Source of the DNA: Thermoanaerobaculia bacterium
Lineage (GTDB): Bacteria > Acidobacteriota > Thermoanaerobaculia > UBA5066
DNA length: 64,000 nucleotides
Direction: 5' to 3'
NCBI GenBank assembly: GCA_046331465.1
Contig: JAXLQV010000001.1
Span: forward strand, 671,210 to 735,209
Each line of letters opens with the position of its first letter. Positions within the stretch are counted from its first letter, which is position 1. The translations under genes and the position numbers were made by a program. Below, piece after piece: positions 1 through 22,959 of the stretch. A model generated the notes under the pieces. That model saw nothing but the letters and a program-made list of their open reading frames with translations, was not told the origin of the DNA and made no database searches.

Positions 1-931
1 GGACGAGCCTCGCGCGTGAGGAGAGGCCGCCCCGTGGTGCGCGACGAGCCGCGCTCTCGGCCTCCCGTGCCAGGTTCCTCTCCTCGAGCGCGATTCGCGC
101 CTCCCGGATGTCACGCAGCCGCTCGCGAGGGTCCCGCTCCAGGCAGCGCCCGAGGAGTTGCCGGACGGAACGCGGCACGTCTCGGGGAAGGCGTTCCCAG
201 TCGATCTCCTGCCTGAGGACGGAGGCCAGGACGTCGGAAACGGTCTCCCCGTCGAAGAGCCTTCCGCCAGACAGCATCTCGAAGAGGACGACGCCGAACG
301 CCCAGACGTCCGCCCTCCGGTCGACCGGCTTCCCCTGCGCCTGCTCCGGCGACATGTACCGGGTCGTCCCGAGGACGACCCCTTCCGAAGTAGAAGAGGC
401 CGGCTGCGTGGACGCCTCGGGCGGCGCATCCCAGACGTCCCCGGGTTCCACGGAGAGCGCCTTCGCGATGCCGAAGTCCAGGAGCTTGACGGCGCCGTCG
501 CGCGGGACGACGACGTTCGCGGGTTTCAGGTCCCGGTGGACGATCCCCTTCTCGTGCGCGGCCTCGAGGCCTTCCGCGACCTGCCCCGCGACGGAAAGAG
601 TCTCGTCGAGCGGGAGCCTGCCCTTGGCCATCCGCTCGGCGAGCGTCGGTCCCTCGACGAGCTCCATGACGAGGACGTGCTCGCCGTCGCTCTCCTCCAG
701 GCCGTGGATCGCTGCGACGTTCGGGTGGCCGAGCGAGGCGAGGAGCCGCGCCTCGTGCGTCAGGCGCGCCACACGGTCCACGTTCGTCGAGAATCCGGGC
801 GGAAGCGTCTTCAGCGCGACGTCGCGCCCTAGCTTCGAGTCGTGAGCGCGCCAGACCTCGCCCATTCCTCCCGAGCCGAGGAAGGCCACGACCTGGTACG
901 GGCCGATCAGCCGCCCGGGCTGAAGGCTCAT
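1..931 (-). CDS. Hanks-type serine/threonine protein kinase, N-terminal catalytic domain; the C-terminal part runs off the window start (partial)
   Basis: Minus-strand translation from the ATG at 931 reads MSLQPGRLIGPYQVVAFLGSGGMGEVWRAH...VALK...HRDLKPANV...DFGIAKA. The Gly-loop, VAIK-type Lys, HRDLKP catalytic loop and DFG motif are all present. The frame stays open to position 1. Confidence 0.8.
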   Translation of the reverse strand, partial: MSLQPGRLIGPYQVVAFLGSGGMGEVWRAHDSKLGRDVALKTLPPGFSTNVDRVARLTHEARLLASLGHPNVAAIHGLEESDGEHVLVMELVEGPTLAERMAKGRLPLDETLSVAGQVAEGLEAAHEKGIVHRDLKPANVVVPRDGAVKLLDFGIAKALSVEPGDVWDAPPEASTQPASSTSEGVVLGTTRYMSPEQAQGKPVDRRADVWAFGVVLFEMLSGGRLFDGETVSDVLASVLRQEIDWERLPRDVPRSVRQLLGRCLERDPRERLRDIREARIALEERNLAREAESAARRAPRGGLSSRARLV

Positions 932-1033
932 TGCGCGTTCTTTTCCGTCCAGTCTAGACCCGGACGGGAGGAGCGTGATCCGTCTCCGTCCTGCCGATCG
1001 GGACGATCGGCGGAGCGGACCGCAGCCGGGGCA

Positions 1034-1717: not shown

Positions 1718-2368
1718 ATGAAGCTCCGGTTCGGGGAGTTCACCTGCGACGGCGGACGCCGCCAGCTCCTCCGGCAGGGCGAGCCGGTCCGTGTGTCGTC
1801 CAAGGCGTTCCAGCTCCTCGAGCTGCTCCTCGCGCGGCGCCCGAATGCCGTCTCCCGCGAGGAGATTCAGGACGCGCTCTGGCCGGAGTCGCTCGTGACG
1901 GAGACGACCCTCGCGAACCTCGTCACCGAGGTCCGGGCGGTGCTCGGCGAGTCGGGGCGCGAGACCCGGCTGGTCAGGACGGCCTGGGGCTTCGGCTACG
2001 CCTTCGACGGCGAGGCGACGGAGCTGGAGGGGAGGTTGCCGGCAGACGGCCCGGGCCGCCACGTCCTCCTCTGGGGGGACCGGGAGTTCCCGCTGCGGGA
2101 AGGGGAGAACGTCGTCGGCAGAGAGCCGGGCCTCGCCGTCTCCGTCGTCCATCCGTCGGTCTCGCGCGAGCACGCGCGGATCACCGTGAACGGGGCGGAG
2201 GTCGAGATCGAGGACCTCGAAAGCAAGAACGGGACGTTCGTCGGCGGCAGGCGCCTCGAGGGCCGGCAGACGCTTCGGTCCGGCGACACGGTCACCGCCG
2301 GAAGCGCCACCCTTCTCTACGTCGACACGCGCGCCGCCGCCGACCGCGAGACCGAGACGGCGCGCTGA
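1718..2368 (+). CDS. transcriptional regulator with an N-terminal OmpR/PhoB-type winged-helix DNA-binding domain and a C-terminal FHA domain (EmbR-like minimal architecture, no receiver domain)
   Basis: The N-terminus (LRFGEFTCDGGRRQLLRQGEPVRVSSKAFQLLELLLARRPNAVSREEIQDALWPE...TLANLVTEVRAVLG...RTAWGFGYAF) is a trans_reg_C-type wHTH. The C-terminus (VGREPG..SVVHPSVSREHARITVNGAEVEIEDLESKNGTFVGGRRL) carries the FHA G-R...S-R-x-H...S-x-N-G-T motifs. Confidence 0.75.
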   Translation: MKLRFGEFTCDGGRRQLLRQGEPVRVSSKAFQLLELLLARRPNAVSREEIQDALWPESLVTETTLANLVTEVRAVLGESGRETRLVRTAWGFGYAFDGEATELEGRLPADGPGRHVLLWGDREFPLREGENVVGREPGLAVSVVHPSVSREHARITVNGAEVEIEDLESKNGTFVGGRRLEGRQTLRSGDTVTAGSATLLYVDTRAAADRETETAR

Positions 2369-3774: not shown

Positions 3775-5562
3775 CTACCGGGCGACGTACTCGACGAAGA
3801 ACTGCTCCGGGAGGAAGCCGTGGACCTTCGAGGCAACGAGGCCGGCGGCGGCCATCGCCTCGTCCACCTCCTCGCGCGACATCTTCTGCTCGGGCGGCGG
3901 CCCCCAGGGACGCTCCGCCCACGGCTTCGGCGTGTAGTCGACGACGACGACGCGCCCTCCCGGCGCGAGTCCCGCGCGGATTTTCCTCAGCCAGGCGGCC
4001 CGGTCGGCGACGTAGTGGAGCGTGTCGACCATCAGGACGGTGTCGAGACCGGCCGGCGGGAGGCGCGGGTCGTCCTTCGGGACGACGAGGGTCCTCACGT
4101 TCGCGAGGCCCGCCTCCTCCACTCGATGCGCGAGGAACTCCAGGAGGTCGGGGTTGACGTCGACCGCGAGGACCAGGCCGGTCGGCCCGACCGCCCTCGC
4201 GACGCGGAGCGTGAAGTAGCCCGAGCCGGCGCCGACGTCGGCAATCCTCTCGCCGGGGCGGAGCGCGAGGGCCTGCATCACCTCGTCCGGCTTCTGGAAG
4301 GAGTCGCGCTCCTTCCTCTCGAGCATCGCGATGTACCGCTTCACGCCGATCGCCTTCGAGAGGGCCTTGAAGCGCCCGTCGTCCCGCAGGGCGGCGAACG
4401 CCTCGTCCTTGCGGAGCTCGAAGACGTCGACGATCCCGGCCTGGTAGGCGTGCTCGAGGGTGTCGCACGCCTCCTTGTGGTGGCCGAGGAGGGCGTGGGC
4501 GCGGGCGAGCCGGTAGAGAGCCTCGACGTGCGCCTCCCCGGCGGCCTCGGCCGCCGTCTCGGCGCGGGGAAGGGCCGCGGCCCAGTCGGTCGCCGCGTCC
4601 GCCCCGTGGAGGAAGTCGGCGAGGGCCTCCGACGCGGGGACGAGGTCGCGCCATCCCGGGCGCGTCTCGAAGAGGTCCTCGTAGATGACGACCTGGGCGT
4701 CGTCGAGGTGCGCGAGGCGGGAGGCCGCGGGGACGCGCTCTTGGAGGTGCAGCGGGTAGCCGGCCTCGTTCGGGAGCGGCGACCGTTCGGCAGCGCTCGT
4801 GCGCGCGAGGACGACGGCGCTGAAGACGGCCTGGTGGAGGAAGAGGTGGCGGAGCCCTCCGGGGCCCGCCTCGGCCCGGATTGCCGGGTCTGAGGCGAGG
4901 GCCGCGAACGCCCGGGCCCACTCGCGGAGGAGGCCCTTCGAAGGCCGCACCGCGTAGACGCCGCAGTTGACGTACCAGCGGACCCGCCCGGGGTCGACGA
5001 GCGGCTGGACCGTCTCGGGGAACGACCGGTCGAGGCCGGCCTCGCGGGAGATCTGCGTCCACCAGGCGTCGAGCGGCGCTCCCTCGGGAAGGGCGACCGC
5101 GTTCCGGAGGAAGACGGGGCGGACTGCGACCGACGCCTCGCCGCCGAGGAGGAGCGCCGTCGGCGGCGAGAGGACGAGCGTCTCGGCGTCGAGCCAGACG
5201 AGCGTCCGCGCGCTCTTCTCGACGAGCGCCTCCACCTGCGCGGCGGCGAGGACCTTCCGCGCGTACGGGAACGTCCGGAGCGCGGCGTCTCCCCCCAGCG
5301 GGTGCACGGTGACGCCGGGGCGCATCCCCAGGGGCGCCGCCTCTTCGAGGACACCGTCGACGACGACGTGGACGGGAGCGTCGGCGAGCGGGCCGCCGAA
5401 CCTCCGGAGCGAGTCGACGAGGAGGCTCGCCTTTCGAGCCTGGAGCGGGCTCTCGACGGACGTGGCGAAAGCCACGTCGGGTACCGCCGCGGCAAGGCCC
5501 GGGGTGGCAGGCAGGAGGAACGAGGCGCAGAGCACCAGGACGTGGCGTCGTCGGCTGGTCAT
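3775..5562 (-). CDS. multidomain exported or membrane-anchored protein with a C-terminal class I SAM-dependent methyltransferase domain
   Basis: ATG at 5562 is preceded by GGAGG. N-terminus MTSRRRHVLVLCASFLLPATPGLAAA is a signal peptide or anchor. A central TPR-like segment follows. The C-terminus carries methyltransferase motif I (IADVGAGSGYFTLRVA) and post-I (LAVDVNPD..V), then VVVDY. Confidence 0.6.
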   Translation of the reverse strand: MTSRRRHVLVLCASFLLPATPGLAAAVPDVAFATSVESPLQARKASLLVDSLRRFGGPLADAPVHVVVDGVLEEAAPLGMRPGVTVHPLGGDAALRTFPYARKVLAAAQVEALVEKSARTLVWLDAETLVLSPPTALLLGGEASVAVRPVFLRNAVALPEGAPLDAWWTQISREAGLDRSFPETVQPLVDPGRVRWYVNCGVYAVRPSKGLLREWARAFAALASDPAIRAEAGPGGLRHLFLHQAVFSAVVLARTSAAERSPLPNEAGYPLHLQERVPAASRLAHLDDAQVVIYEDLFETRPGWRDLVPASEALADFLHGADAATDWAAALPRAETAAEAAGEAHVEALYRLARAHALLGHHKEACDTLEHAYQAGIVDVFELRKDEAFAALRDDGRFKALSKAIGVKRYIAMLERKERDSFQKPDEVMQALALRPGERIADVGAGSGYFTLRVARAVGPTGLVLAVDVNPDLLEFLAHRVEEAGLANVRTLVVPKDDPRLPPAGLDTVLMVDTLHYVADRAAWLRKIRAGLAPGGRVVVVDYTPKPWAERPWGPPPEQKMSREEVDEAMAAAGLVASKVHGFLPEQFFVEYVAR

Positions 5563-5734
5563 GAGGTCCTCCGTCGTCTTGCTACGGGCGGCGCGAGATC
5601 GAGTTGTGAGACGGCAGCGCAAGTCGGCCCTCGCGTCCCGGGGCTCCCCCGATCGTCCGTATGACGCGCATCATGTCGGGAGCCCTTCCGACCGAACAGA
5701 CTGAGCCCGGAAAGACCTCGAGGAGGACCTGAAG

Positions 5735-7309
5735 ATGATGCCGGACACGAGACGGATGCTCGTCCTCGCCGCCGCGCTCCTTCCCCCCGCCGCGTTCGCA
5801 GCCCCCCCCGCCGCGCTCCCGGTGACGGCGGGCCTCGGGAGGTCGGAGGCGTGCCTCACCTGCCACGAGCAGGGGAGCCCGGGGCTCGTCGCGCACTGGC
5901 GCGACAGCGCGCACGCCCGGGCGCAGGTGGGGTGCTACGACTGCCACCAGGCGAAGAAGGGGGAGGCGGACGCCTTCGAGCACGAGGGCGTGGTCATCGC
6001 GACGGTCGTCACGCCGCGCGACTGCGGCCGCTGCCACCAGAAGGAAGACCTGCAGTTCGAGGGGAGCCACCACGCGAAGGCGGGGAACATCCTCGCCTCG
6101 CTCGACAACTACCTCGCCGAGACGGTCGAGGGAGCCCGCCTCCCGTTCAACCCCCACTCGCCCACGCCCGGGAAGGCGGCGGGCGGCCCGGTCAACGGCC
6201 TCGCGAGCGTGCAGTCCGGCTGCATGCAGTGCCACGGCGCCCGGCTGGCGCTGAAGGTCAAGGACGGCGGGGCGCCCGTGACGGTCGTCGACCTCGCGCC
6301 CGGGCCGGACGGGATGCCGACGAACGCCGCCGCGATGGCCCGGATCGTCCGGGACGCGGACGGGCGCCCGACGTTCGACAGCTCCTCGTGGCCGAACACG
6401 GGGATCGGGCGCCTCAACCTCGACGGGTCGCTCGGGTCGTGCAGCGCCTGCCACAGCCGCCACGACTTCTCGGCCCGGCGCGCGCGGCAGCCGGAGAACT
6501 GCGGCAAGTGCCACCTCGGCCCCGACCACCCGCAGAAGGAGATCTACGAGGAGTCCAAGCACGGCGTCGCCTACCGCGACCTGAAGGACAAGCTGAACCT
6601 CGACGGGAAGACGTGGGTCCTCGGGAAGGACTACTCCGCCGCGCCGACCTGCGCGACCTGCCACGTCTCGGCGACCGAGAGCGGCCTGCCGGTGACCCAC
6701 GACCCGGGGGAGCGGATCTCCTGGACGAACCGCCCGGCGGTCTCGCTCGTCATGGACACGGACGCGGCCCACAAGGTCGTGACGGAGACCGACCCCGCGA
6801 AGCGGAAGGCCCTCGTCGCCGACCCGGCCGACGCCAAGCGCGGGCGGATGAAGCAGGTCTGCGGCGAGTGCCACACCTCGGGCTACGTCGACGCGTTCTA
6901 TGGGCAGTACGACGACCTCGTCGTCCTCTACAACGAGAAGTTCGGCAAGCCCGGAACGGCCCTGATGGCCGAGCTCGCCAGGCAGGGGCTCCTGACGAAG
7001 AAGCAGTTCGACGAGAAGATCGAGTGGGAGTGGTTCTACCTCTGGCACCACGAGGGGCGCAGGGCGCGCCACGGCGCGGCGATGATGGCCCCCGACTACA
7101 CCCACTGGCACGGCATGTACGAGGTGGCCGAGCGCTTCTACCAGGGCGTGATCCCCGAGGCCCGCGAGATCGCCGCGAAGGCCGCGGCGGAGGGGAAGAA
7201 GGCGCAGGCCGACGCCGTGAACGCGCTCGTCGACTCGATCCTCGCCCGTCCCGAGCACGCCTGGTTCCTGGCCGAGAAGGCGGCCGCCCCGCCCTCGAAG
7301 CCGCACTGA
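5735..7309 (+). CDS. octaheme c-type cytochrome, hydroxylamine-oxidoreductase (HAO / epsilon-Hao) family
   Basis: Has a signal peptide and eight CxxCH motifs: CLTCH, CYDCH, CGRCH, CMQCH, CSACH, CGKCH, CATCH, CGECH. Their spacing matches the HAO family. GGAGG lies 7 nt upstream of the ATG. Confidence 0.75.
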   Translation: MMPDTRRMLVLAAALLPPAAFAAPPAALPVTAGLGRSEACLTCHEQGSPGLVAHWRDSAHARAQVGCYDCHQAKKGEADAFEHEGVVIATVVTPRDCGRCHQKEDLQFEGSHHAKAGNILASLDNYLAETVEGARLPFNPHSPTPGKAAGGPVNGLASVQSGCMQCHGARLALKVKDGGAPVTVVDLAPGPDGMPTNAAAMARIVRDADGRPTFDSSSWPNTGIGRLNLDGSLGSCSACHSRHDFSARRARQPENCGKCHLGPDHPQKEIYEESKHGVAYRDLKDKLNLDGKTWVLGKDYSAAPTCATCHVSATESGLPVTHDPGERISWTNRPAVSLVMDTDAAHKVVTETDPAKRKALVADPADAKRGRMKQVCGECHTSGYVDAFYGQYDDLVVLYNEKFGKPGTALMAELARQGLLTKKQFDEKIEWEWFYLWHHEGRRARHGAAMMAPDYTHWHGMYEVAERFYQGVIPEAREIAAKAAAEGKKAQADAVNALVDSILARPEHAWFLAEKAAAPPSKPH

Positions 7310-7330
7310 CGGGGCGCGGGGATCGGAAGG

Positions 7331-7362
7331 GAGCCGCGCCTCCGCAGGGGGAGGCGCGGCTC
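7331..7362. terminator. GC-rich stem-loop between convergent genes (bidirectional intrinsic-terminator candidate)
   Basis: Perfect 13-bp inverted repeat GAGCCGCGCCTCC / GGAGGCGCGGCTC with a 6-nt loop, in the 80-bp gap between the cytochrome stop (7309) and the M20 peptidase stop (7389). Confidence 0.4.
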
Positions 7363-7388
7363 GGAGTCCACGGCCGGCCGGAGCCGGC

Positions 7389-8768
7389 TTACGGCTTCGC
7401 GGCCGGGCCTCCGAGGAGCTCCAGCGTGGAGAAGACGAGCGCCGCGACGCCGGTGCGGATCGTCGGCCCGCGGTCGGGGGCGAACTGGGAGTTGTGCGGG
7501 CCGGGGACGAAGCGCCCTTCGGCCTTCGCCCGGCTCAGCTCGGCCGGCGCGGTCGCCCCGATGCGCAGCTGGACGGACGGGGCGCCCGCGACCCGGCCGT
7601 AGACGCCGAAGTCCTCGGAGGAGCTCGAGGGCTCGGCCGGGAGGACGTTCGCGTCGCCGAGCCCGCGGCGGAGAGCCGCCTCGAGGCGGGCGGACATGGC
7701 CGGGTCGTTCACGACGACCTCGGAGGCCTCGCGGGGGTCGACGACGACCTCGGGCTCGCGCGGCGCGCCGGAGGCGGCCGCCTCGGCCTTCGCGATCCGC
7801 GCGATCGCGGCGAGGAGCTGCTTCTGCACCTCGGGCCGGTAGGAGCGGACGGTGAGCTGGAGCTTCGCCTCGTCCGGGATGACGTTCCGCTTCGTCCCCG
7901 CGTGGAACGTCCCGACCGTGACGACGGCCGGCTCGAAGGGGTTCACCTCGCGCGACACGATGGCCTGGAGCGCAACGACGGCCCGGGCCGCCATGAGGAC
8001 CGGGTCGATCGTCCGCTGCGGCATCGCCCCGTGCCCCCCCCGGCCGAAGAACGTGACGTCGACGGCGTTCGACGCGGCCGACGCCGGCCCCGACGTGACG
8101 CCGGCGGCGCCGGAGGGGAGGAGGTTCGTCACGTGGAGGCCGAGGACGAAATCAGGCTTGGGGAAGCGGGTGAGGAGCCCGTCCTTCACCATCGCCTCGG
8201 CGCCCCGCAGCGTCTCCTCGGCCGGCTGGCCGACGAAGACGAGCGTCCCCTTCCAGCGGGTCTTCGCTTTCGCGAGGAGCGTCGCGGCGCCGACCCAGGA
8301 CGTCATGTGGACGTCGTGGCCGCAGGCGTGCATCACCGGGACGGTCTCTCCCGCGTCGTCCCTCGCCGTGACGGTGCTCGCGTAGGGAAGCCCCGTCTTC
8401 TCCGGCATCGGCAGGGCGTCCATGTCGGTCCTCACGAGGACCGTCGGCCCCTTGCCGTTCCGGAGGACTCCGACGACGCCCGTCCCGCCGACTCCCTCGG
8501 TCACCTCGAACCCGGCGGCGCGCAGCCGCGTCGCCATCTCCGCGGCCGTCCGCGCCTCGTGCGTCGAGAGCTCCGGGTTCCGGTGGAGGTCGAGGTAGAG
8601 GGCGTCGAGCGACGGGGCGAGCGCGTCGAGGCCCTCGAGGCCTCGCGGTCCCTCCGCCGCGGCGGGCGCCGGAGCCAGGGCGAGGACGGCGAGGGCGACG
8701 AGCGGGACCGTCGCGAGGCGCGGAGCGCGGAACGTTCTCCTGCCGTGGTCTTCCGGAGATCGGCTCAT
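7389..8768 (-). CDS. M20-family amidohydrolase/peptidase (M20D, hippurate-hydrolase/aminoacylase-like), secreted
   Basis: Has a signal peptide and the M20 metal-ligand regions HACGHDVH...GQPAEE...GGHGAMP. 459 aa. Confidence 0.8.
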   Translation of the reverse strand: MSRSPEDHGRRTFRAPRLATVPLVALAVLALAPAPAAAEGPRGLEGLDALAPSLDALYLDLHRNPELSTHEARTAAEMATRLRAAGFEVTEGVGGTGVVGVLRNGKGPTVLVRTDMDALPMPEKTGLPYASTVTARDDAGETVPVMHACGHDVHMTSWVGAATLLAKAKTRWKGTLVFVGQPAEETLRGAEAMVKDGLLTRFPKPDFVLGLHVTNLLPSGAAGVTSGPASAASNAVDVTFFGRGGHGAMPQRTIDPVLMAARAVVALQAIVSREVNPFEPAVVTVGTFHAGTKRNVIPDEAKLQLTVRSYRPEVQKQLLAAIARIAKAEAAASGAPREPEVVVDPREASEVVVNDPAMSARLEAALRRGLGDANVLPAEPSSSSEDFGVYGRVAGAPSVQLRIGATAPAELSRAKAEGRFVPGPHNSQFAPDRGPTIRTGVAALVFSTLELLGGPAAKP

Positions 8769-12478: not shown

Positions 12479-12817
12479 TCAGAAGCTCGCGAGGGCCTCG
12501 GCGCGGTCGGCGTGGATCTCGAAGACGGCGGCGAGCGCGGTCAGCTCGAGGAGCTTCATGAGCCTCGGCCCGACGTCGAGGAGCTTCATCCGCCCCCCCA
12601 GGTGTCTCTGGGTCAGCGTGAGCGCCCTTACGAGCGAGCCGAGGCCCGTGGAGTCGACGGTGCGGAGCCGTCCGCAGTCGACCAGGATCCGCACCTTCCC
12701 CGCCTCGAGGATCTCGGTCACCGCCTGACGGAAGAGCGACTCGGGCTCGCCGATGACGAAGTCGCCCTCGAGGGCGATCACGGTCACGTGGCCTTCGTCG
12801 CAGACGTCGAGCTTCAT
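12479..12817 (-). CDS. STAS-domain anti-sigma-factor antagonist (SpoIIAA/RsbV-like)
   Basis: 112 aa. LRTVDSTGLGSLVRAL carries the STAS phosphorylatable Ser/Thr region (DSTGLG). Confidence 0.7.
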   Translation of the reverse strand: MKLDVCDEGHVTVIALEGDFVIGEPESLFRQAVTEILEAGKVRILVDCGRLRTVDSTGLGSLVRALTLTQRHLGGRMKLLDVGPRLMKLLELTALAAVFEIHADRAEALASF

Positions 12818-14099: not shown

Positions 14100-14134
14100 C
14101 GCTCCGACGAGTGTCTAAAGGTGTCGACGAGGTG

Positions 14135-15289
14135 TCAAGCGCTCGTCGTGACGCGGACGACGGCCGCGCGGAGGGCGCCGCCGTCGAGCCGGAGGGCCTC
14201 GATCCGCTCCGCCGCGGCCCGGAGGGCGGCCCGTGCGGCCTCCGCGTCGGCCCGGAGGGAGTTGGCTTCCGAGCCCCGGGCCGCGAGGGCGGCCCCCGCG
14301 GCCTCGAGCCTCCGCGACAGGAACTCGCCGGTCTCGGAGGCGGTCCTCGCGCCCCGGACCGCCTCGGACAGCGAGCGCTCGAGCTGGCCGCAGAGCCCCT
14401 CGAGGGCGCCGAGGCGCTCCGCCGCGCGCGCGCCGCGCTCGGCCGCCGCGGTCGCGGTCCCCGCGGACTCCTCGACGAAGGCGGCGACGCGGCGGGCGCC
14501 GGCGTCGTTCCGCCGGGCGGCCTCGGACAGCTCGCGCGAGAGGCGCCGGGCCTCCTCGAAGAGCCCGCGGAGCTCCGCGGCCGCTTCTTCGAAGGGCGCT
14601 TCCGTCCCTCCCGCGCGGTTCGCGAGGATCGAGATGTTCAGGCCGAGGAGGTTCGCGCGGTCGGCGAGGCCGGAGATGGAGGCGGCGAGGGGAGCGAGCT
14701 CGTCCGCGGTGCGCGAGAGCTGCGCGAGACCGTGCCCCAGGCCGCCGTCGAGGACGGCGACCCGCTCGAGCGAGGCCCGGAGGCTCCGGACGTCGTCGGC
14801 GAGCCGGGAGCGCTCGTCGGAGAGCCGCTCCGCCGTCGCGAGCGCCCGCTCGGCGCTCCCGTCGGCAGGCGGGAGGGGCGCCACCTCTTCCGGCTCGGGG
14901 ACCGGCGCCGCCGGCGGAAGCGGGGTCCGGAGGTGGTTCGCGGCGGCCGCGAGGGCCGGCCCGGAGGCCTCGACGCACTCCGCGAGGCGCTCGGCCGGGG
15001 CGACGAGCGCCGCGGCGAGCCGCTCCACCGCGTCGCCGGGAGTCGTCTCGGGAGGGGGGAGGGGACGATGCGGCTCCGCGGGCGGAACGGCCGGCTCCTC
15101 GTCCTCGCGCCACGGCCGGCCGGGCTCGGGTCCGGAGAGCGGCTCCGCCGACGACCGGACCCTCTCCGGCCGTGCGGCGAGGCGTTCCTCGAGCCTCCTC
15201 AGCCGCGCACGCTCGGTCCGGAGGGCGCTCCAGGTCGAGGCCAGGAGGACGAGAGCGGCCGCGAGAAGGAGGGCGAGGACGAGCTCCAT
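14135..15289 (-). CDS. coiled-coil protein with a degenerate methyl-accepting-chemotaxis-protein signalling-domain-like segment
   Basis: Has an N-terminal TM helix and long Ala/Leu/Glu/Arg heptad-like repeats. The segment NLLGLNISILANRAGGTEAPFEEAAAELRGL resembles the MCP signalling hairpin. The overlapping plus-strand ORF is R/G/E-rich junk. Confidence 0.4.
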   Translation of the reverse strand: MELVLALLLAAALVLLASTWSALRTERARLRRLEERLAARPERVRSSAEPLSGPEPGRPWREDEEPAVPPAEPHRPLPPPETTPGDAVERLAAALVAPAERLAECVEASGPALAAAANHLRTPLPPAAPVPEPEEVAPLPPADGSAERALATAERLSDERSRLADDVRSLRASLERVAVLDGGLGHGLAQLSRTADELAPLAASISGLADRANLLGLNISILANRAGGTEAPFEEAAAELRGLFEEARRLSRELSEAARRNDAGARRVAAFVEESAGTATAAAERGARAAERLGALEGLCGQLERSLSEAVRGARTASETGEFLSRRLEAAGAALAARGSEANSLRADAEAARAALRAAAERIEALRLDGGALRAAVVRVTTSA

Positions 15290-15342
15290 CCGGGTCGAAA
15301 GCGTACACCGCGGCGCCGCTCCCGCCTAAACTCGCGAGCCGC

Positions 15343-16518
15343 GTGACGACGACGCTCGCCCTCCGCCCCGGCCGCGACGACGCCGCCCGACGGCGTCACC
15401 CGTGGGTCTTCTCGCGGGCCCTCGCGGGGAGCCCGCCCCGCGACGCGGGCGAGGCCGAGCTCCGGTCCGCTTCGGGGGCGTTCCTCGGCCGCGGCTTCTC
15501 TTCGCCGCGCTCCTCCATCGCGGCCCGGCTCTGGCGGTTCGACGAGGCGCCTCTCGACGCGGCCTTCGTGCGCGGCCTCGTGGAGGCCGCGGCGCGGCTG
15601 CGCGAGCGCCTCGTCCCGCCCGACACCGACGGCTGCCGGCTCGTCCACGCCGAGGGGGACGGCCTCCCCGGCCTCGTCGTCGACCGGTACGCGGACGTCC
15701 TCGCCCTCCAGGCGACGACGGCCGGCACCGAGGCGGCGAAGCCCCTCTGGCTGCCCGCGCTCCGCGACCTCTTCCCGCGGGCCTCGATCCTCCAGCGGAA
15801 CGACCTCCCGAGCCGTCACGGCGAGGGGCTGCCGCTCGAGGACGAGCTCCTCGCCGGAGATCCTCCGGCGGGGCGCGTCCCGTTCCGCGAGAGGGGGATG
15901 ACGTTCCTCGCGGACCTCGCGGGGGGGCAGAAGACGGGGTTCTTCCTCGACCAGCGCGAGAACCGCCACCTCGTCCGCGGCCTCGGGGGGGGGAAGAGCG
16001 TCCTGAACCTCTTCTCCTACTCCGGGGCGTTCGGTGTCGCGGCGCTCGCGGGAGGCGCCTCCCGCGTGACGCACGTCGACGTCTCCGCGCCGGCCCTCGC
16101 CCTCGCGCGGGAGAACCACGCCGCGAACGGGCAGGACCTCTCGCGCGTCGAGACGGTCGCGGCCGACGCCTTCGAGGACCTCCGCGCGCGCGTGGCCCGC
16201 GGCGAGACGTGGGACGTCGTCGTCACCGACCCGCCCGCCTTCGCGAAGAAGACGCTCGACGTCGACCGCGCCTGCCGCGGCTACAAGGACGTGAACCGCC
16301 TCGCGCTGAAGCTCCTCGCGCCGGGCGGGCTCCTCCTCGCCTGCTCCTGCTCCGGTCCCGTCTCCGCGGACCTCTTCCAGAAGGTCCTCTTCGCCGCGTC
16401 GCTCGACGCGGGCGTCCCCGTGCGCCTCCTCGAGCGGCGCGGCGCCGGCCCGGACCACCCGGTCTCGATCGACTGCCCCGAGACCGAGTACCTGAAGGCG
16501 TTCCTCCTCTCCCGGTGA
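15343..16518 (+). CDS. rlmI: 23S rRNA (cytosine1962-C5)-methyltransferase RlmI-like (PUA/EEHEE N-domain plus class I MTase)
   Basis: A GTG start gives [47 protein letters not shown].FDE. This aligns residue-for-residue with the E. coli RlmI N-terminus ([27 protein letters not shown]...ARGAYSPASQIRARVWTFD). Also [13 protein letters not shown] and DPPAF. Confidence 0.8.
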   Translation: [391 protein letters not shown]

Positions 16519-17663
16519 CGGACGTCGTCCTGCTCGGCCCGGTCCCGCCCTGGCGGAGCGGCATCGCCGACCAGACGGTGCGGCTCGCACGCGCCTTGGC
16601 GCGGCTCGGCGCGCCTCCGCTCGTCCTCACCTTCTCGCGGATGTACCCGCGAACGCTCTACCCGGGGAAGGCCGACCGGGGCGAGGGGGCCTTCCCGGCC
16701 GACCTCGAGCTCCTCCCGATCCTCGACGGTCTCGACCCTCTCTCGTTCCGGCGCGCCGCCGAGGTTGCGGCGGCGCGGGGCGCGCGCCTCGCGGCGGCGG
16801 CGTTCTGGACTTCGGTCTTCGCGCCGCACCTCGCGCTCTTCCTCTCGTCTCACCGCGCCGAGGCGCCGGGGGCACTGCGGCTCCTCCTCTGCCACAACCT
16901 CGCCGACCACGAGGCCGGCGCCCCCCGGCGCGCCCTCGCCCGGCTCGCGCTCCGGCGGGCCGACGTCCTCGCCGTCCAGAACGCGGAGGACCTCGCGACG
17001 GCGCGGCGGGAGGTGCCCGAGGCGCGCGCCGTCCTCGTGCCGCACCCATCCGAGCCGGCCGCGACCGTTCCGCGCGAGGAGGCGCGCCGCCGCCTCGACC
17101 TGCCTGCCGGCGCGCCCGTCTTCCTCTTCAGCGGGCTCCTCCGGCCGTACAAGGGCTGGGACGTCCTCCTCGCCGCGTTCGCGGAGGTGCGCCGGGCGCT
17201 CCCCGAGGCGCTCCTCCTCCTCGCCGGCGAGCCGTGGGGCGAGGCGAAGGCGCTCGCGTCGCGCCCGGCGCCGGACGGGGTCCGTCTCTTCCTCCGCTTC
17301 CTGCCGGCCGAGGAGCGGGGGCTCCTCTTCGACGCCTGTGACGCGGTCGTCTGCCCCTACCGGCACGCGACCGGCTCCGGGATCGCGGCGGACGCCGTCG
17401 CGCACGGGCGGCCCGTCCTCGGGTCGGACGTCCCGGGGCTCGCGGTCGCCGTCGAGGAGGGGGTTTCCGGCCTCCTCGTCCCTCCGGGCGACGCGGGTGC
17501 CCTCGCCGCCGCGATGCTCCGCTTCGTCCGCGAGGGGCTCGGGCCGCGCCTCGCGTCCGGGGCCGCCGCGGCGGCCGCGCGGCTCTCCCCGGAGGCGCAC
17601 GCGAAGGCCGTCCTCGAGGCGGGGGGGATCGTCCCGGGAGGGCGCCCCGGCCCGCCCGGTTAG
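16515..17663 (+). CDS. GT4-family (group 1) glycosyltransferase
   Basis: GTG start overlaps the rlmI stop (GTGA). C-terminal GT-B sugar-donor-binding region (FLPAEERGLLFDACDAVVCPYRHATGSGIAADAVAHGRPVLGSDVPGL..VEEGVSGLLVPPGD) with the E-x7-E-like motif. Confidence 0.7.
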   Translation: MTDVVLLGPVPPWRSGIADQTVRLARALARLGAPPLVLTFSRMYPRTLYPGKADRGEGAFPADLELLPILDGLDPLSFRRAAEVAAARGARLAAAAFWTSVFAPHLALFLSSHRAEAPGALRLLLCHNLADHEAGAPRRALARLALRRADVLAVQNAEDLATARREVPEARAVLVPHPSEPAATVPREEARRRLDLPAGAPVFLFSGLLRPYKGWDVLLAAFAEVRRALPEALLLLAGEPWGEAKALASRPAPDGVRLFLRFLPAEERGLLFDACDAVVCPYRHATGSGIAADAVAHGRPVLGSDVPGLAVAVEEGVSGLLVPPGDAGALAAAMLRFVREGLGPRLASGAAAAAARLSPEAHAKAVLEAGGIVPGGRPGPPG

Positions 17664-17710
17664 ACTCCGGCGAACCCGCGCGAGAGTCGCGCGGACGAGG
17701 ACCAGAGCGC

Positions 17711-18772
<1,062 letters not shown>

Positions 18773-18894: not shown

Positions 18895-20892
18895 ATGAGG
18901 CTCTCCCCGCCCCTCCTCGCTCCCGCCCTCCCGGGGCTCCTTCTCCTCGCCCTCCTGCCGGCCGGCGCGCGCGCGGCCGACCCGCCGATCGACACCTCGC
19001 CTCCTCCCGCGCCGGTGAAGCTCGTCTTCGTCCACCACTCGACGGGCGAGGGGTGGCTCGCGGACGACGGGGGCGGGCTCGGAATCGCCCTGCGCGACGC
19101 CGGCTGGTTCGTGAGCGACACGAACTACGGCTGGGGTCCTCCCGACGCGGACGCGGGGGACGGGACGATCGGCGACCACACGGACATCGGGAACTGGTGG
19201 TCGTGGTTCGTCGGTCCCCACCGCGACACCTATGTCGCCGCCCTCCTCTCCGAGAGCGGGCCTCACTGCGACTACTCCCGGCGTGCCTCCGACCCGGGCG
19301 GCGCGAACCGGGTCGTGATGTTCAAGTCGTGCTTCCCGAACTCGCAGCTCGGCGGAAGCCCGTCGGACCCGGTCCCGTCCATCGCCTCGAACCCGCTTCG
19401 CGGCGAGGGGAGCGGCTCCGAGTACCACACGGTCGCGAACGCGAAAGGGATCTACCTCGCGCTGCGCGACTACTTCGCGACGCGGACCGACGTCCTCTGG
19501 GTCGTCGTCACGGCGCCGCCGCTCACCCCGGCGTCGACGGACGCCGCCGCCGCCTCGAATGCCCGCGCCTTCAACGAGTGGCTCGTGAACGAGTGGCTCG
19601 TCGGCTACCCGCAGAGGAACGTCTTCGTCTTCGACTTCTACAACGTCCTCACTTCGGACGGCGGCTCGACGCGGACGAACGACCCGGGGGCGAACGATCT
19701 CGGCTGGGCCGACGGGAACCACCACCGGGTGCGTGGCGGAGTCGTCGAGCACCTCCGGACCGTGGCGAACGACACGTCCGCCTACGGCAGCTCCCCCGAC
19801 GACAGCCACCCGACCGGCGCGGGCGGCCTCAAGGCGAGCGGCGAGCTCGTCCCGCTCCTGAACGCGGCGTGGCACTGCTGGCAGGGGACCGGGGCCTGCC
19901 CGACGGCGACGACGCCCCCCGCCTGCACGATCGGCTGCTTCGCCGTCGTCCCGGCGGAGGCGGAGGCCGGGAGCGCCCTCGGCTTCTCCGCGACGTCGAA
20001 GGTCGAGGGGTGCACGGGTGTGGCGTCCTACGACTGGGACTTCGGCGACGGCAGCCCGCACGGCGCCGGAGCGAGCGCGACGCACGCCTACGCGGCGGGG
20101 ACGTGGACCTGGCGCCTCACGGTCACGTCGGGAAGCGGGAGCTGCACGCGCACGGGGACGGTCGTCGCGACGACGGGCGGGGGAGGCGGAGGGGGCGGCA
20201 CGGCGTGGGCCGCGATCGTCCCCGCGGTGGCGCATTCGCCGGGGGACAAGGGGAGCCTCTGGCGGACGGACCTCGCCGTCGTGAACCCCGGCAGCTCCCT
20301 CGCGAGCCTGACGCTGACCTTCGTGCCGGTCGACGGCGTGCCGTCGACGCGGACGTCGACGCTCGCGGCGAACGGGACGCGCGAGTGGGCCGACGTCCTC
20401 GTCGCGCTCTTCGGCGTCGCGTCGGACGCGAGCGCGTCCGGTGCGCTCGGCATCGCTTCGGACCGGACGCTCTGCGTCGCGTCGCGGACCTTCAACCAGG
20501 GAGAGAGCGGGACGTTCGGCGGCTTCCTTCCCGCGGTGGAGCCGAAGGACGCCCTTTCGCCGGGGCAGACCGGAGTCCTCCCGCAGCTCGCGCGCAACGC
20601 CCTCTTCCGGACGAACGTCGGCGTCGCGAACCTCGGGAGCTCGGCCGTGACCGCGCGGCTCCGGCTCTGGGACGCCGACGGCGTCGCGGTGGGAGCGCCG
20701 ATCGACGTGAGCGTCCCGCCGGGCGCCCTCAACCAGGTCGTCGACCCGTTCGGCGTCGCCGGCGCGGGGGACCGCGACGTCGCGTACGCGACCGTCGAGG
20801 TGACGACGCCCGGCGGCCTCGCGTGGGCCTACGCCTCGGTCATCGACAACCGGACGGGGGACCCGACGATCGTTCCGCTCGAGGTCCCGTGA
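18895..20892 (+). CDS. secreted paralog A: signal peptide, hydrolase-like N-domain, PKD domain, Gly8 linker, and the shared roughly 200-aa C-terminal domain (unrecognised family)
   Basis: GGAGG precedes the ATG. Signal MRLSPPLLAPALPGLLLLALLPAGARA. The PKD signature WDFGDGS..TH.Y..GTWTWRLTV is present. A GGGGGGGG linker follows. The C-terminal 225 aa are homologous to the C-termini of the next two genes. Confidence 0.75.
   Translation: MRLSPPLLAPALPGLLLLALLPAGARAADPPIDTSPPPAPVKLVFVHHSTGEGWLADDGGGLGIALRDAGWFVSDTNYGWGPPDADAGDGTIGDHTDIGNWWSWFVGPHRDTYVAALLSESGPHCDYSRRASDPGGANRVVMFKSCFPNSQLGGSPSDPVPSIASNPLRGEGSGSEYHTVANAKGIYLALRDYFATRTDVLWVVVTAPPLTPASTDAAAASNARAFNEWLVNEWLVGYPQRNVFVFDFYNVLTSDGGSTRTNDPGANDLGWADGNHHRVRGGVVEHLRTVANDTSAYGSSPDDSHPTGAGGLKASGELVPLLNAAWHCWQGTGACPTATTPPACTIGCFAVVPAEAEAGSALGFSATSKVEGCTGVASYDWDFGDGSPHGAGASATHAYAAGTWTWRLTVTSGSGSCTRTGTVVATTGGGGGGGGTAWAAIVPAVAHSPGDKGSLWRTDLAVVNPGSSLASLTLTFVPVDGVPSTRTSTLAANGTREWADVLVALFGVASDASASGALGIASDRTLCVASRTFNQGESGTFGGFLPAVEPKDALSPGQTGVLPQLARNALFRTNVGVANLGSSAVTARLRLWDADGVAVGAPIDVSVPPGALNQVVDPFGVAGAGDRDVAYATVEVTTPGGLAWAYASVIDNRTGDPTIVPLEVP
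20209..20892 (+). repeat. copy 1 (most divergent) of the DNA segment encoding the shared C-terminal domain
   Basis: Encodes ..VPAVAHSPGDKGSLWRTDLAVVNPG...ASGALGIASDRTL.VASRTFN..GTFGGFLP...GVLPQL.R....RTNVGVANLG.....LRLW.ADG.A.G....VPPGAL.QV.D.F...GAGD...AYATVEVTTPGGLAWAYASVIDNRTGDPTIVPLEVP. About 55% aa identity to copies 2 and 3. Confidence 0.7.
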
Positions 20893-20905
20893 GGGAGGGC
20901 GAGCC

Positions 20906-22948: not shown

Positions 22949-22959
22949 GGAGGTGAGCC

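Follow-up and report, generated by a model that had tools for sequence, protein, structure and literature searches.

A lone HAO-family octaheme cytochrome c, a candidate nitrogen-oxide reductase from a Thermoanaerobaculia-like bacterium

Metagenome pipelines tag genes for HAO-family octaheme cytochromes as 'hydroxylamine dehydrogenase', and these are counted as nitrification markers. The 64-kb window analysed here (the whole stretch of DNA under study) carries one such gene, and the question it raises is whether the product oxidises hydroxylamine or, as our analysis suggests, is of the reductive type, and from where it would draw its electrons. The gene and its 5′ elements are as follows:

5735–7309, + strand: octaheme HAO-family cytochrome c gene, 524 amino acids plus stop (ORF, Pfam and PDB matches)
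5720–5727, + strand: ribosome-binding site GAGGAGGA, 7 nt ahead of the ATG (direct sequence reading)
5735–5800, + strand: predicted cleavable Sec signal peptide MMPDTRRMLVLAAALLPPAAFA, residues 1–22 (sequence reading)

The GC3 of this ORF is 0.98 in a window of 73% GC, which fits a real gene. Its product contains exactly eight CxxCH motifs. A six-frame scan of the 64 kb returned only one other stop-to-stop segment with CxxCH, a single motif lying antisense inside another gene, so eight motifs in one ORF are far beyond chance; the product is the sole c-type cytochrome in the window. The same protein, identical, is present in four ENA metagenome assemblies. A first-pass annotation had described a good ribosome-binding site, a Sec signal and eight CxxCH motifs with HAO-like spacing: the ribosome-binding site is strong, the N-terminus (MMPDTRRMLVLAAALLPPAAFA, then AP after the predicted cleavage point) looks Sec-type and cleavable, and all eight motifs are there, each aligned to a heme motif of the Nitrosomonas europaea enzyme (NeHAO). 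The signal peptide sequence varies among clade members and is not conserved. A Tat signal was considered, as the window protein has a TRR, but was rejected because the TRR is not conserved in P0001 and because c-type cytochromes are matured after Sec export.

The heme motifs and the main insertion are located as follows:

5852–5866, + strand: heme 1 motif C40LTCH44, aligned with NeHAO CVECH
5933–5947, + strand: heme 2 motif C67YDCH71, aligned with NeHAO CIDCH
6023–6037, + strand: heme 3 motif C97GRCH101, aligned with NeHAO CGTCH
6221–6235, + strand: heme 4 motif C163MQCH167, presumed catalytic, aligned with NeHAO CTMCH (the P460 heme motif)
6236–6439, + strand: extra stretch of about 60 residues, compared with NeHAO, inserted between the heme 4 and heme 5 motifs, ending W219PNTGIGRLNLDGSLGSC and common to IhOCC (YPNHGVGRVNPDGSLGAC)
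6440–6454, + strand: heme 5 motif C236SACH240, from alignment to HAO structures
6500–6514, + strand: heme 6 motif C256GKCH260, from alignment to HAO structures
6650–6664, + strand: heme 7 motif C306ATCH310, from alignment to HAO structures
6860–6874, + strand: heme 8 motif C376GECH380, from alignment to HAO structures

In a profile–profile alignment (hhalign), each of the eight motifs pairs with one heme motif of Nitrosomonas HAO (probability 99.96%, E = 5e-39), and none of the eight heme sites falls away on alignment with NeHAO. The proximal ligand of heme 4 is His, where NrfA and ONR have Lys. An AlphaFold2 model places long C-terminal helices at residues 382–416, 428–449, 453–485, 489–503 and 506–517 with high pLDDT, in a model that is mediocre overall (pLDDT 74.9, TM to HAO structures only 0.27–0.30).

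By sequence, the protein is a member of the HAO/IhOCC clade, in the Pfam family PF13447 (E = 6e-21). Searched as a single sequence against the PDB, it matched 4qo5 (IhOCC, E = 4e-44), 6h5l (E = 3e-23) and 1fgj (E = 8e-18), and a family profile matched 4QO5 at E = 2e-54. The first-pass annotation had held that closer kinship with the octaheme tetrathionate reductase (OTR) or MccA families would speak against it; no OTR or MccA chain was matched at E ≤ 1 in the PDB searches, with sequence or family profile, and the HAO/IhOCC clade was found instead. ONR likewise gave no PDB match, and every motif is CxxCH with no CxxCK. Affiliation with OTR, MccA or ONR was dropped for this lack of similarity in the PDB searches. 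NrfA matches were marginal (E = 0.01–0.7), Pfam also returned weak MtrC/MtrF-domain and cytochrome c7 matches, and the NCBIfam hydrazine dehydrogenase model NF052343 scored 64.3 bits, below its cutoff of 900.

Two elements of the putative catalytic pocket bear on the direction of the reaction:

6524–6529, + strand: Asp264-His265, corresponding to the NeHAO distal catalytic pair Asp267-His268 (HMMER alignment to 1fgj/4fas)
7082–7114, + strand: invariant loop M450-M-A-P-D-Y455-T-H457-W458-H-G460, corresponding to the NeHAO loop that bears the cross-link Tyr467

Asp264-His265 is invariant in 48 family sequences, and both the pair and the loop are invariant across phyla at overall identities of 65–92%, which argues for a conserved catalytic role. 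The first-pass annotation had singled out the cross-linking Tyr of oxidative HAO as the residue to compare. When the C-terminal regions of 58 diverse relatives and six oxidative HAOs were aligned with L-INS-i, Tyr467 of NeHAO (its surrounding sequence confirmed against 4fas) fell on His457, a column in which none of the 58 relatives has Tyr, and the HMMER alignment to IhOCC gave the identical register. PMC8940962, citing Haase 2017, gives the epsilon-Hao signature as Trp at the Tyr-equivalent site and Met eight residues ahead; W458 and M450 match the signature so described, and both are invariant in two family alignments. The Tyr467 site is thus occupied by His457 in the L-INS-i and IhOCC registers, or by Trp458 under the epsilon-Hao signature. 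A literature search for an epsilon-Hao variant W464Y returned no match. Tyr334 of NeHAO is replaced by Arg333.

Another tyrosine, the invariant Tyr455, lies two residues ahead of the aligned cross-link position. The alignment-supported registers place it on Trp465 of NeHAO and on the corresponding Trp of IhOCC (WT-Y in NeHAO, WT-T in IhOCC, YT-H here), whereas counting without gaps from the helix upstream would bring it onto Tyr467 itself. Global hhalign (-glob) left the NeHAO Tyr unpaired in an insertion, at low confidence, and the L-INS-i alignment with intermediates and the IhOCC bridge were used instead. The cross-linking Tyr of oxidative HAO therefore appears to be missing in every alignment-supported register; a cross-link through Tyr455 is conceivable from sequence alone, given its invariance, the ungapped register and the low confidence of the global alignment.

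The window offers little by way of redox partners. Upstream lies a divergent methyltransferase fusion (615 amino acids, 3775–5622, − strand) with a probable start at ATG 5562 on the minus strand, preceded by GGAGG, and downstream lies a convergent M20 peptidase (7389–8768, − strand), as the first-pass annotation had the flanks. Searches with tblastn found no match to Rieske, cytochrome b, NapA or tetraheme homologues in the 64-kb window, nor does it hold NapC/NrfH-type or nap genes. The 40 ORFs scanned carry no haoB, c554, cM552, amo or hzs domains, and there is no second cytochrome c in the 64 kb. No gene of nitrate, nitrite or NO metabolism (nor included) and no electron donor was found in the window, and tRNA and Rfam scans of it returned nothing. 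The description of the gene as an orphan holds in that no partner cytochrome is nearby, but the partners it had been measured against (CycB, cM552, NrfH, HaoB) are not the usual ones of this family, which are Rieske and cytochrome b.

This became clear from related genomic loci, where an N-terminal membrane anchor is present in 75 of 80. In all 75 the gene immediately upstream encodes cytochrome b, and in 71 there is a Rieske gene too; a NapA gene lies downstream of the octaheme gene in 35 of these 75 loci, and one NapA representative (locus L070) passes NCBIfam NF010055 with 976 bits against a cutoff of 904. The Rieske/cytochrome b-linked relatives share a conserved N-terminal transmembrane anchor, MTLxxKRxIIxxLGxLFLxSLVFVQWMEV, where the window protein has its signal peptide, and they are its closest relatives, at 59–70% identity. 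Among the same 80 loci, Rieske/cytochrome b/NapA linkage occurs in none of the four assessable signal-peptide forms.

In a neighbour-joining tree without bootstrap, the window protein falls in a clade of 83 signal-peptide sequences and one shortened sequence, with none anchored. This soluble lineage appears nested among membrane-anchored homologues in that tree, the rooting of which rests on relatives of about 50% identity with mixed N-terminal types. Orphan status is not rare: Rieske/cytochrome b genes adjoin the octaheme gene in none of the 14 contexts of this large signal-peptide clade that were examined, the window included. Eleven of the other 13 have unrelated neighbours and no N-oxide gene. 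The remaining two, from Anaeromyxobacter paludicola and an Anaeromyxobacteraceae MAG, show an operon of the order GAF-sigma54 activator, hemerythrin, qNOR, octaheme and hemerythrin with a sigma54 promoter, in which the activator is divergent and the octaheme orthologue lies 31–38 nt downstream of the qNOR gene. At one soluble-clade locus (L090), a molybdopterin/ferredoxin cluster downstream includes a lone Rieske-domain gene, at a distance of about 5.6 kb. No paper characterising the soluble clade was found in the literature on Anaeromyxobacter or Thermoanaerobaculia hao genes.

The non-coding sequence on either side of the gene contains the following:

5563–5734, unstranded: divergent intergenic/promoter region between the methyltransferase and octaheme genes
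5661–5674, unstranded: palindromic box ATGACGCGCATCAT, its half-sites (TGAC-N4-ATCA) resembling those of the CRP/FNR family, 73 nt ahead of the octaheme start codon
7331–7362, unstranded: perfect GC-rich hairpin of 13 bp where the octaheme and M20 peptidase genes converge, terminator-like without a T-run

The box, ATGAC-N4-GTCAT, is the single match in the 64 kb both to ATGAY-N4-RTCAT (expected 0.00) and to TGAY-N4-RTCA (expected 0.5). Equivalent boxes stand ahead of four soluble-clade orthologues, at −71 (L005), −72 (L085), −67 (L092) and −49 (L088), giving five of 14 soluble-clade loci with the window included, compared with a background density of 0.34 sites per kb. The promoter scan found no match to the sigma-70 consensus, and the upstream region in the window has no sigma54 pattern. 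The region of the hairpin (7300–7395) has an MFE of −58.3 kcal/mol (z = −2.9), and a T-run-based terminator scan returned no match.

Taken together, we consider it probable that the product of this gene is a soluble octaheme reductase of the IhOCC/epsilon-Hao type, exported to the periplasm by Sec and most likely acting on nitrogen oxides. Seven bis-His hemes would pass electrons on to heme 4 (C163MQCH). This heme should be five-coordinate and, given the Asp264-His265 distal pair and the apparent lack of a Tyr–heme cross-link, would be expected to reduce a small nitrogen oxide and not oxidise hydroxylamine. Nitrite would be the likeliest substrate, with hydroxylamine and NO as probable alternatives and ammonium or NO as product; we infer a trimeric state. 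The protein may descend from anchored forms that supply the cytochrome c of a Rieske/cytochrome b quinol oxidase, in many cases with NapA adjoining; the soluble lineage would then have given up the anchor in favour of a cleavable signal peptide, and its linkage to the Rieske/cytochrome b genes as well. With both gone, its electrons would have to be supplied by generic carriers, periplasmic or membrane-bound, whose genes lie elsewhere. Transcription would be monocistronic, from the region of the CRP/FNR-type box to the GC hairpin, and the box and single-gene transcription would fit control by low oxygen or N-oxides. The role in N-oxide detoxification or respiration proposed by the first-pass annotation is plausible and finds support in the context.

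Other readings were considered. One is that the protein is an NO-forming nitrite reductase feeding an NO reductase, supplying the nitrite-to-NO step where nirS and nirK are missing, like the anammox HAOr, and is not mainly ammonium-forming or detoxifying. The closeness of the orthologue to qNOR in the sigma54 operons of A. paludicola and the Anaeromyxobacteraceae MAG suggests as much; so does Kustc0458, which makes NO from nitrite without the Tyr (PMC8042395) and shares with the window protein the Asp-His pair that is Asp-Val in IhOCC. We nevertheless regard this as rather unlikely: the 64-kb window has no nor gene, N-oxide genes are missing from 11 of the 13 other soluble-clade contexts, the hemerythrin operon would suit detoxification of NO or hydroxylamine equally, NapA accompanies the anchored relatives, as it does in Caldithrix, a nitrate ammonifier (PMC5317091), and the sequence is nearer IhOCC than Kustc0458. 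More doubtful yet is that the protein still serves, as subunit or dedicated acceptor, a Rieske/cytochrome b complex whose genes lie elsewhere, and owes its orphan look to gene relocation. The genome view is 64 kb only, and the mature domain is 60–70% identical to the linked forms, but the transmembrane anchor of all 75 linked homologues is replaced by a variable cleavable signal peptide, its loss is common to the whole clade of 83 clusters, and no adjoining Rieske/cytochrome b genes occur in the 14 contexts (the Rieske-domain gene of L090 is alone and some 5.6 kb off).

The two remaining readings concern the chemistry itself, and we regard both as highly improbable. That the enzyme oxidises hydroxylamine (or hydrazine) as a dehydrogenase whose P460-type heme is cross-linked via Tyr455 would agree with the invariance of that residue in a loop equivalent to that of Tyr467, with the one ungapped register that sets Tyr on Tyr, and with the names hydroxylamine dehydrogenase or oxidoreductase that JGI and NCBI often give to relatives. 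Against it, the supported registers put Tyr455 on tryptophans in NeHAO and IhOCC, Tyr334 has given way to Arg333, the hydrazine dehydrogenase score is far from its cutoff (64 bits against 900), amo, haoB, c554 and cM552 were not found in the window, and the family is tied to NapA, of a reductive pathway. Multiheme cytochromes of the superfamily are promiscuous in vitro (PMC9250108), which together with the weak MtrC/MtrF-domain and cytochrome c7 matches and a window free of N-cycle genes would suit a non-catalytic electron carrier, or a reductase for sulfite, tetrathionate or metals; yet similarity to OTR and MccA was undetectable and that to NrfA marginal, the family is associated with NapA and qNOR, and the invariance of Asp264-His265 and the active-site loop across phyla argues for catalysis.

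A reductase of nitrogen oxides thus remains our preferred reading, and we see the protein, which comes from a common soluble offshoot, as a real if rather unremarkable candidate for a nitrite/hydroxylamine/NO reductase. An active enzyme would provide an acidobacterial (Thermoanaerobaculia-like) organism with a route to reduce or detoxify nitrite, hydroxylamine and NO without NrfA, NirS or NirK. The pattern within the family, in which anchored forms are always wired to Rieske/cytochrome b and often to NapA while a large soluble clade is unwired, and tied to qNOR in the two Anaeromyxobacteraceae loci examined, offers a testable handle on how the HAO-type enzymes of organisms other than nitrifiers and anammox bacteria couple to the quinone pool. 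A bolder proposal, to which we give limited credence, is that the soluble clade constitutes an unrecognised and widespread periplasmic nitrite reductase, NO-forming or scavenging NO/hydroxylamine, born by membrane release from a Rieske/cytochrome b–NapA module. It would supply the nitrite-to-NO step to qNOR in bacteria without nirS/nirK (Anaeromyxobacter, Thermoanaerobaculia) under NO/O2-responsive control by a sigma54/GAF activator or a CRP/FNR box, and, if true, would explain N2O formation now put down to chemodenitrification.

Among the characterised systems, NeHAO (1FGJ/4FAS) shares with the window protein the eight-heme scaffold, the Asp-His pair and a C-terminal region of helices. It differs in Tyr467 (here His457/Trp458) and Tyr334 (here Arg333), in lacking the extra 60 or so residues that follow heme 4, and in its associated haoB, c554 and cM552, which the present locus does not have. 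Closer in its lack of the Tyr cross-link is the octaheme HAOr of Kuenenia stuttgartiensis (Kustc0458, 6H5L), which reduces nitrite to NO (PMC8042395) and has the Asp-His motif GPDHP in common with the window protein. It is nevertheless a more distant match than IhOCC (E = 3e-23) without the heme 4–5 insertion, with alignments starting at residue 234, and it works with the diheme Kustc0457 as a 60-heme complex, a partner with no counterpart gene at this locus.

Genes for epsilon-Hao usually lie beside a NapC/NrfH-type tetraheme gene or nap genes, and the window has neither. The epsilon-Haos of Campylobacterota, compared here by their published description (PMC8940962), have no cross-link Tyr and bear the Trp/Met signature seen as W458/M450; those without the Tyr reduce nitrite and hydroxylamine (PMC8042395). 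In Caldithrix abyssi, which has no NrfA, an epsilon-Hao beside nap and Rieske/cytochrome b genes has been proposed to act in its place (PMC5317091). The Rieske/cytochrome b-associated octahemes (Kuenenia kuste4574 of complex R/b-3 and the Caldithrix cluster), likened by context, have the gene order of the closest relatives of the window protein (PMC12485887, PMC5317091), whereas the window protein lacks both the membrane anchor and the gene linkage and falls in a separate clade of the neighbour-joining tree.

IhOCC of Ignicoccus hospitalis (PDB 4QO5) differs in being archaeal, where the window protein is bacterial and Thermoanaerobaculia-like, in having Asp-Val at the Asp-His site, and in lacking the family-invariant W437HHEGRRARH446 and H457-W-H459; identity between the two is only about 24%. 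It is nonetheless the best match among solved structures: it counts eight CxxCH motifs, as does the window protein, and lacks a Tyr cross-link, as the window protein appears to, both carry the heme 4–5 insertion with (W/Y)PNxGxGRxNxDGSxGxC, and the alignment extends through the C-terminal helices, the D-(W/Y)-T loop included.

We examined the open reading frame at 5735-7309 (+), which encodes a protein of 524 residues and whose GC3 is 0.98, the GC content of the window being 73%. The first-pass annotation had described eight CxxCH motifs, a Sec signal and a good ribosome-binding site, flanked by a methyltransferase fusion and a peptidase with no redox partner nearby, and this description held throughout: the reading frame was confirmed, all eight motifs were counted, and the 64-kb window contains neither a further cytochrome nor a quinol dehydrogenase. 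Across six frames of the 64 kb, a single further stop-to-stop segment carries even one CxxCH, antisense inside another gene. From the sequence, by eye, the N-terminus (MMPDTRRMLVLAAALLPPAAFA followed by AP) is predicted to be a Sec signal peptide.

Features of the octaheme gene and its surroundings
3775-5622, minus strand: methyltransferase fusion, divergent neighbour
5661-5674: putative regulatory box ATGACGCGCATCAT, within the 172-nt divergent intergenic region
7 nt upstream of the ATG, plus strand: ribosome-binding site GAGGAGGA, read from the sequence
5735-7309, plus strand: octaheme cytochrome c gene, 524 residues, CxxCH at C40, C67, C97, C163, C236, C256, C306 and C376
7331-7362: perfect 13-bp GC-rich hairpin GAGCCGCGCCUCC...GGAGGCGCGGCUC, between the convergent genes
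7389-8768, minus strand: M20 peptidase, convergent neighbour

The octaheme gene looks monocistronic, since the methyltransferase gene is divergent, the peptidase gene is convergent, and the 13-bp hairpin lies between the convergent pair. A second, 7-bp hairpin is found at 7372-7389; both are terminator-like, with no T-run. For the methyltransferase gene, ATG 5562, with the ribosome-binding site GGAGG before it, is a more probable start than TTG 5622; read from there, the protein would open with the signal-peptide-like MTSRRRHVLVLCASFLLPATPGLAAA. Its first ~430 residues have no Pfam match, and a TPR end-of-group domain (368-421) precedes the C-terminal class I methyltransferase domain. The identical octaheme protein with the same neighbours is present in four ENA metagenome assemblies, and for one member of its >90% cluster the annotation gives a Thermoanaerobaculia MAG as the source.

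Further along the window, three consecutive large reading frames (18895-25107 (+); 665, 680 and 715 residues), the first with a PKD domain and the third with right-handed beta-helix domains, probably encode secreted or surface proteins. A STAS-domain protein (12479-12817 (-)), an 808-residue SpoIIE-type PP2C phosphatase (28080-30506 (-)), a Ser/Thr kinase (2-1033 (-)) and an FHA/winged-helix regulator (1718-2368 (+)) are signalling components of the sort usual in Acidobacteriota and Myxococcota, with no apparent connection to the cytochrome. Long reading frames overlap on both strands at 14111-15346 (+)/14135-15289 (-) and at 16281-18772, where GC-position statistics gave no clear winner and the sole Pfam signal was a sub-threshold MCP signalling-domain match on the minus strand (14135-15289). 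Across 1-64000, neither a gene for tRNA or tmRNA nor an Rfam family reaching the gathering threshold was found.

The protein matches Pfam PF13447 (E 6e-21), while NCBIfam returned just a partial match to hydrazine dehydrogenase (64 bits, where the cutoff is 900). Among solved structures it matched the Ignicoccus hospitalis octaheme cytochrome c (IhOCC, 4qo5; 4e-44), the Kuenenia stuttgartiensis reductive HAO kustc0458 (HAOr, 6h5l; 3e-23) and Nitrosomonas europaea HAO (NeHAO; 8e-18), as well as HOX and HDH, with a marginal match to NrfA. No OTR, MccA or ONR was among these matches, even using the family profile. All eight heme motifs aligned to 58 oxidative HAOs in a profile-profile comparison (probability 99.96%). 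The first-pass annotation had allowed that careful alignment might leave fewer than eight genuine heme sites, or place the protein with OTR or MccA; neither proved so, because the eight motifs align with HAO and OTR and MccA were not found.

The same annotation had proposed a check against the cross-linking tyrosine of oxidative HAO, which came out in favour of a reductive type. In NeHAO, checked on chain 4fas_A, this region reads HVNPGGW465-T-Y467-T-E-G470-W. We aligned the post-heme-8 regions of the protein, of 58 diverse representatives of 50% clusters and of six oxidative HAOs with L-INS-i, which placed Y455-T456-H457...G460 on NeHAO W465-T466-Y467...G470 and on W-A-A...G of an IhOCC-like sequence; none of the 58 relatives has Tyr in the Tyr467 column. 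The HMMER alignment with IhOCC, whose structure is known to have no Tyr cross-link, gave the same register (D-W-T-T against D-Y-T-H). The epsilon-Hao signature, as described in PMC8940962, is Trp at the Tyr-equivalent position with Met eight residues earlier; the invariant W458 and M450 fit this, in a register shifted by one residue relative to L-INS-i. The cross-link-equivalent residue is thus H457 or W458, and in neither register Tyr. The invariant Tyr455 would fall on Tyr467 if the register were counted ungapped from the upstream helix; we found no anchor supporting that count. On sequence alignment, then, the heme cross-link is predicted to be missing. The distal-pocket Asp-His pair is kept (D264-H265, NeHAO D267-H268), and Arg333 (WTNR333P) replaces NeHAO Tyr334 (WANY334P). 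A motif W-H-H-E-G-R-R-A-R-H-G (W437-G447; window 7043-7075), invariant in the family and kept in most relatives at 40-55% identity, is not present in IhOCC-like sequences or oxidative HAOs; one possibility is that it lines a pocket or channel for an anion.

The family is very large, and its sequences are strongly conserved: at least 8000 database proteins match, at 65-92% identity across phyla, and relatives occur in the genomes of at least 595 species (from Acidobacteriota, Planctomycetota, Gemmatimonadota, Myxococcota, Binatia and others). We surveyed the context of the 80 best genomic loci by tblastn. A hydrophobic N-terminal segment, MTLxxKRxIIxxLGxLFLxSLVFVQWMEVxRKxEEAGL, is conserved in 75 of them and is read as a membrane anchor, because a cleaved signal peptide would not show such conservation. 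All 75 anchored loci have a cytochrome b gene directly upstream on the same strand, and 71 also a Rieske gene (Pfam); this makes a Rieske/cytochrome b quinol oxidase the family's usual partner, the octaheme protein standing where cytochrome c1 or f would be. A molybdoenzyme gene comes next in 35 of the 75, followed in 27 of these 35 by a tetraheme cytochrome gene, and in one representative locus, L070, the molybdoenzyme scores above the cutoff of the NCBIfam NapA equivalog (976 bits against 904). The Rieske/cytochrome b-octaheme-NapA module (e.g. L070:6199-12336) is widespread in Planctomycetota, Acidobacteriota, Gemmatimonadota, Binatia and others.

The other five loci have non-conserved, signal-peptide-like N-termini, as does the window protein, and no cytochrome b or Rieske gene lies upstream in any of the four that could be assessed. 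Of the 121 closest database clusters, 85 came out as non-anchor in a motif test, although one of these (P0121) is actually anchored. A neighbour-joining tree built from 198 mature domains groups 83 signal-peptide forms and one truncated sequence in a clade with no anchored member, nested among 100 anchored sequences. More distant relatives have mixed N-terminal types; since this is so and the tree carries no bootstrap support, a change from anchored to soluble is only likely. One basal relative (L083:414-1832, 61% identity) has a different N-terminus with no anchor motif, and NapA and tetraheme genes directly downstream; the end of the contig truncates the region upstream of it, and it may be an intermediate arrangement. 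Eight of ten further soluble-clade contexts are stand-alone with unrelated neighbours. The orphan status of the window gene is real, yet common and clade-wide rather than an oddity of one genome.

In the remaining two contexts, both from Anaeromyxobacteraceae, the gene lies 31-38 nt downstream of a qNOR gene (PF22085+PF00115, about 762 residues) and is third in a hemerythrin-qNOR-octaheme-hemerythrin operon whose last gene is hemerythrin-like:

L086:5145-12247: qNOR operon with octaheme gene, Anaeromyxobacter paludicola AP025592.1
L090:3161-10170: qNOR operon with octaheme gene

The operon is preceded by a sigma54 promoter (TGGCAA-N5-TTGCT), three inverted repeats (CACCG-N6-CGGTG) and a divergent GAF-sigma54 activator, whose matches to NCBIfam NifA, FhlA and NorR all fell below cutoff. 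This layout looks like an NO-response regulon. Among the 80 loci, that of Anaeromyxobacter PSR-1 likewise carries a sigma54-type promoter, immediately before the octaheme copy.

The box ATGACGCGCATCAT is the sole match to ATGAY-N4-RTCAT in 64 kb (expected 0.00) and the sole match to its 12-nt core (expected 0.5). Near-identical boxes stand at -71, -72, -67 and -49 before orthologues from four further genomes, where the flanking genes are unrelated. In all, 5 of 14 soluble-clade loci have one; at the background density of 0.34 sites per kb, chance alone would give about one. We take its half-sites to resemble those of CRP/FNR-family regulators (FNR, FixK, DNR). The putative box could equally serve the divergent methyltransferase gene instead.

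By analogy with its relatives, we consider it reasonably probable that the protein is an exported reductase of nitrite, hydroxylamine or NO. It would be exported by Sec, receive its eight hemes, and probably form a trimer through predicted C-terminal helices, as in its family. Electrons would be taken up by the bis-His hemes and passed to heme 4, which, His-ligated and uncross-linked in a pocket rich in Asp, His and Arg, would reduce the substrate. The donor, presumably a generic periplasmic or membrane carrier, must be encoded elsewhere, since the window holds no candidate cytochrome or quinol dehydrogenase. Ammonium as product would be in line with epsilon-Hao, IhOCC and the NapA-linked relatives. 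That the enzyme instead forms NO fits HAOr and the qNOR-linked orthologues, and we regard this separate alternative as rather unlikely.

In the literature that could be searched, we did not find three family-level regularities stated: the coupling of anchor to Rieske/cytochrome b (75 of 75), the soluble clade that lacks both, and the recurrent upstream box. They are incremental rather than surprising. The Rieske/cytochrome b-octaheme arrangement is already known in outline, from Kuenenia kuste4574, which belongs to complex R/b-3 (PMC12485887), and from the nap-Rieske/cytochrome b-epsilon-Hao cluster of Caldithrix abyssi, a nitrate ammonifier with no NrfA (PMC5317091). The window protein, itself new and uncharacterised, belongs to a known kind of enzyme, the reductive HAOs of epsilon-Hao/IhOCC type.
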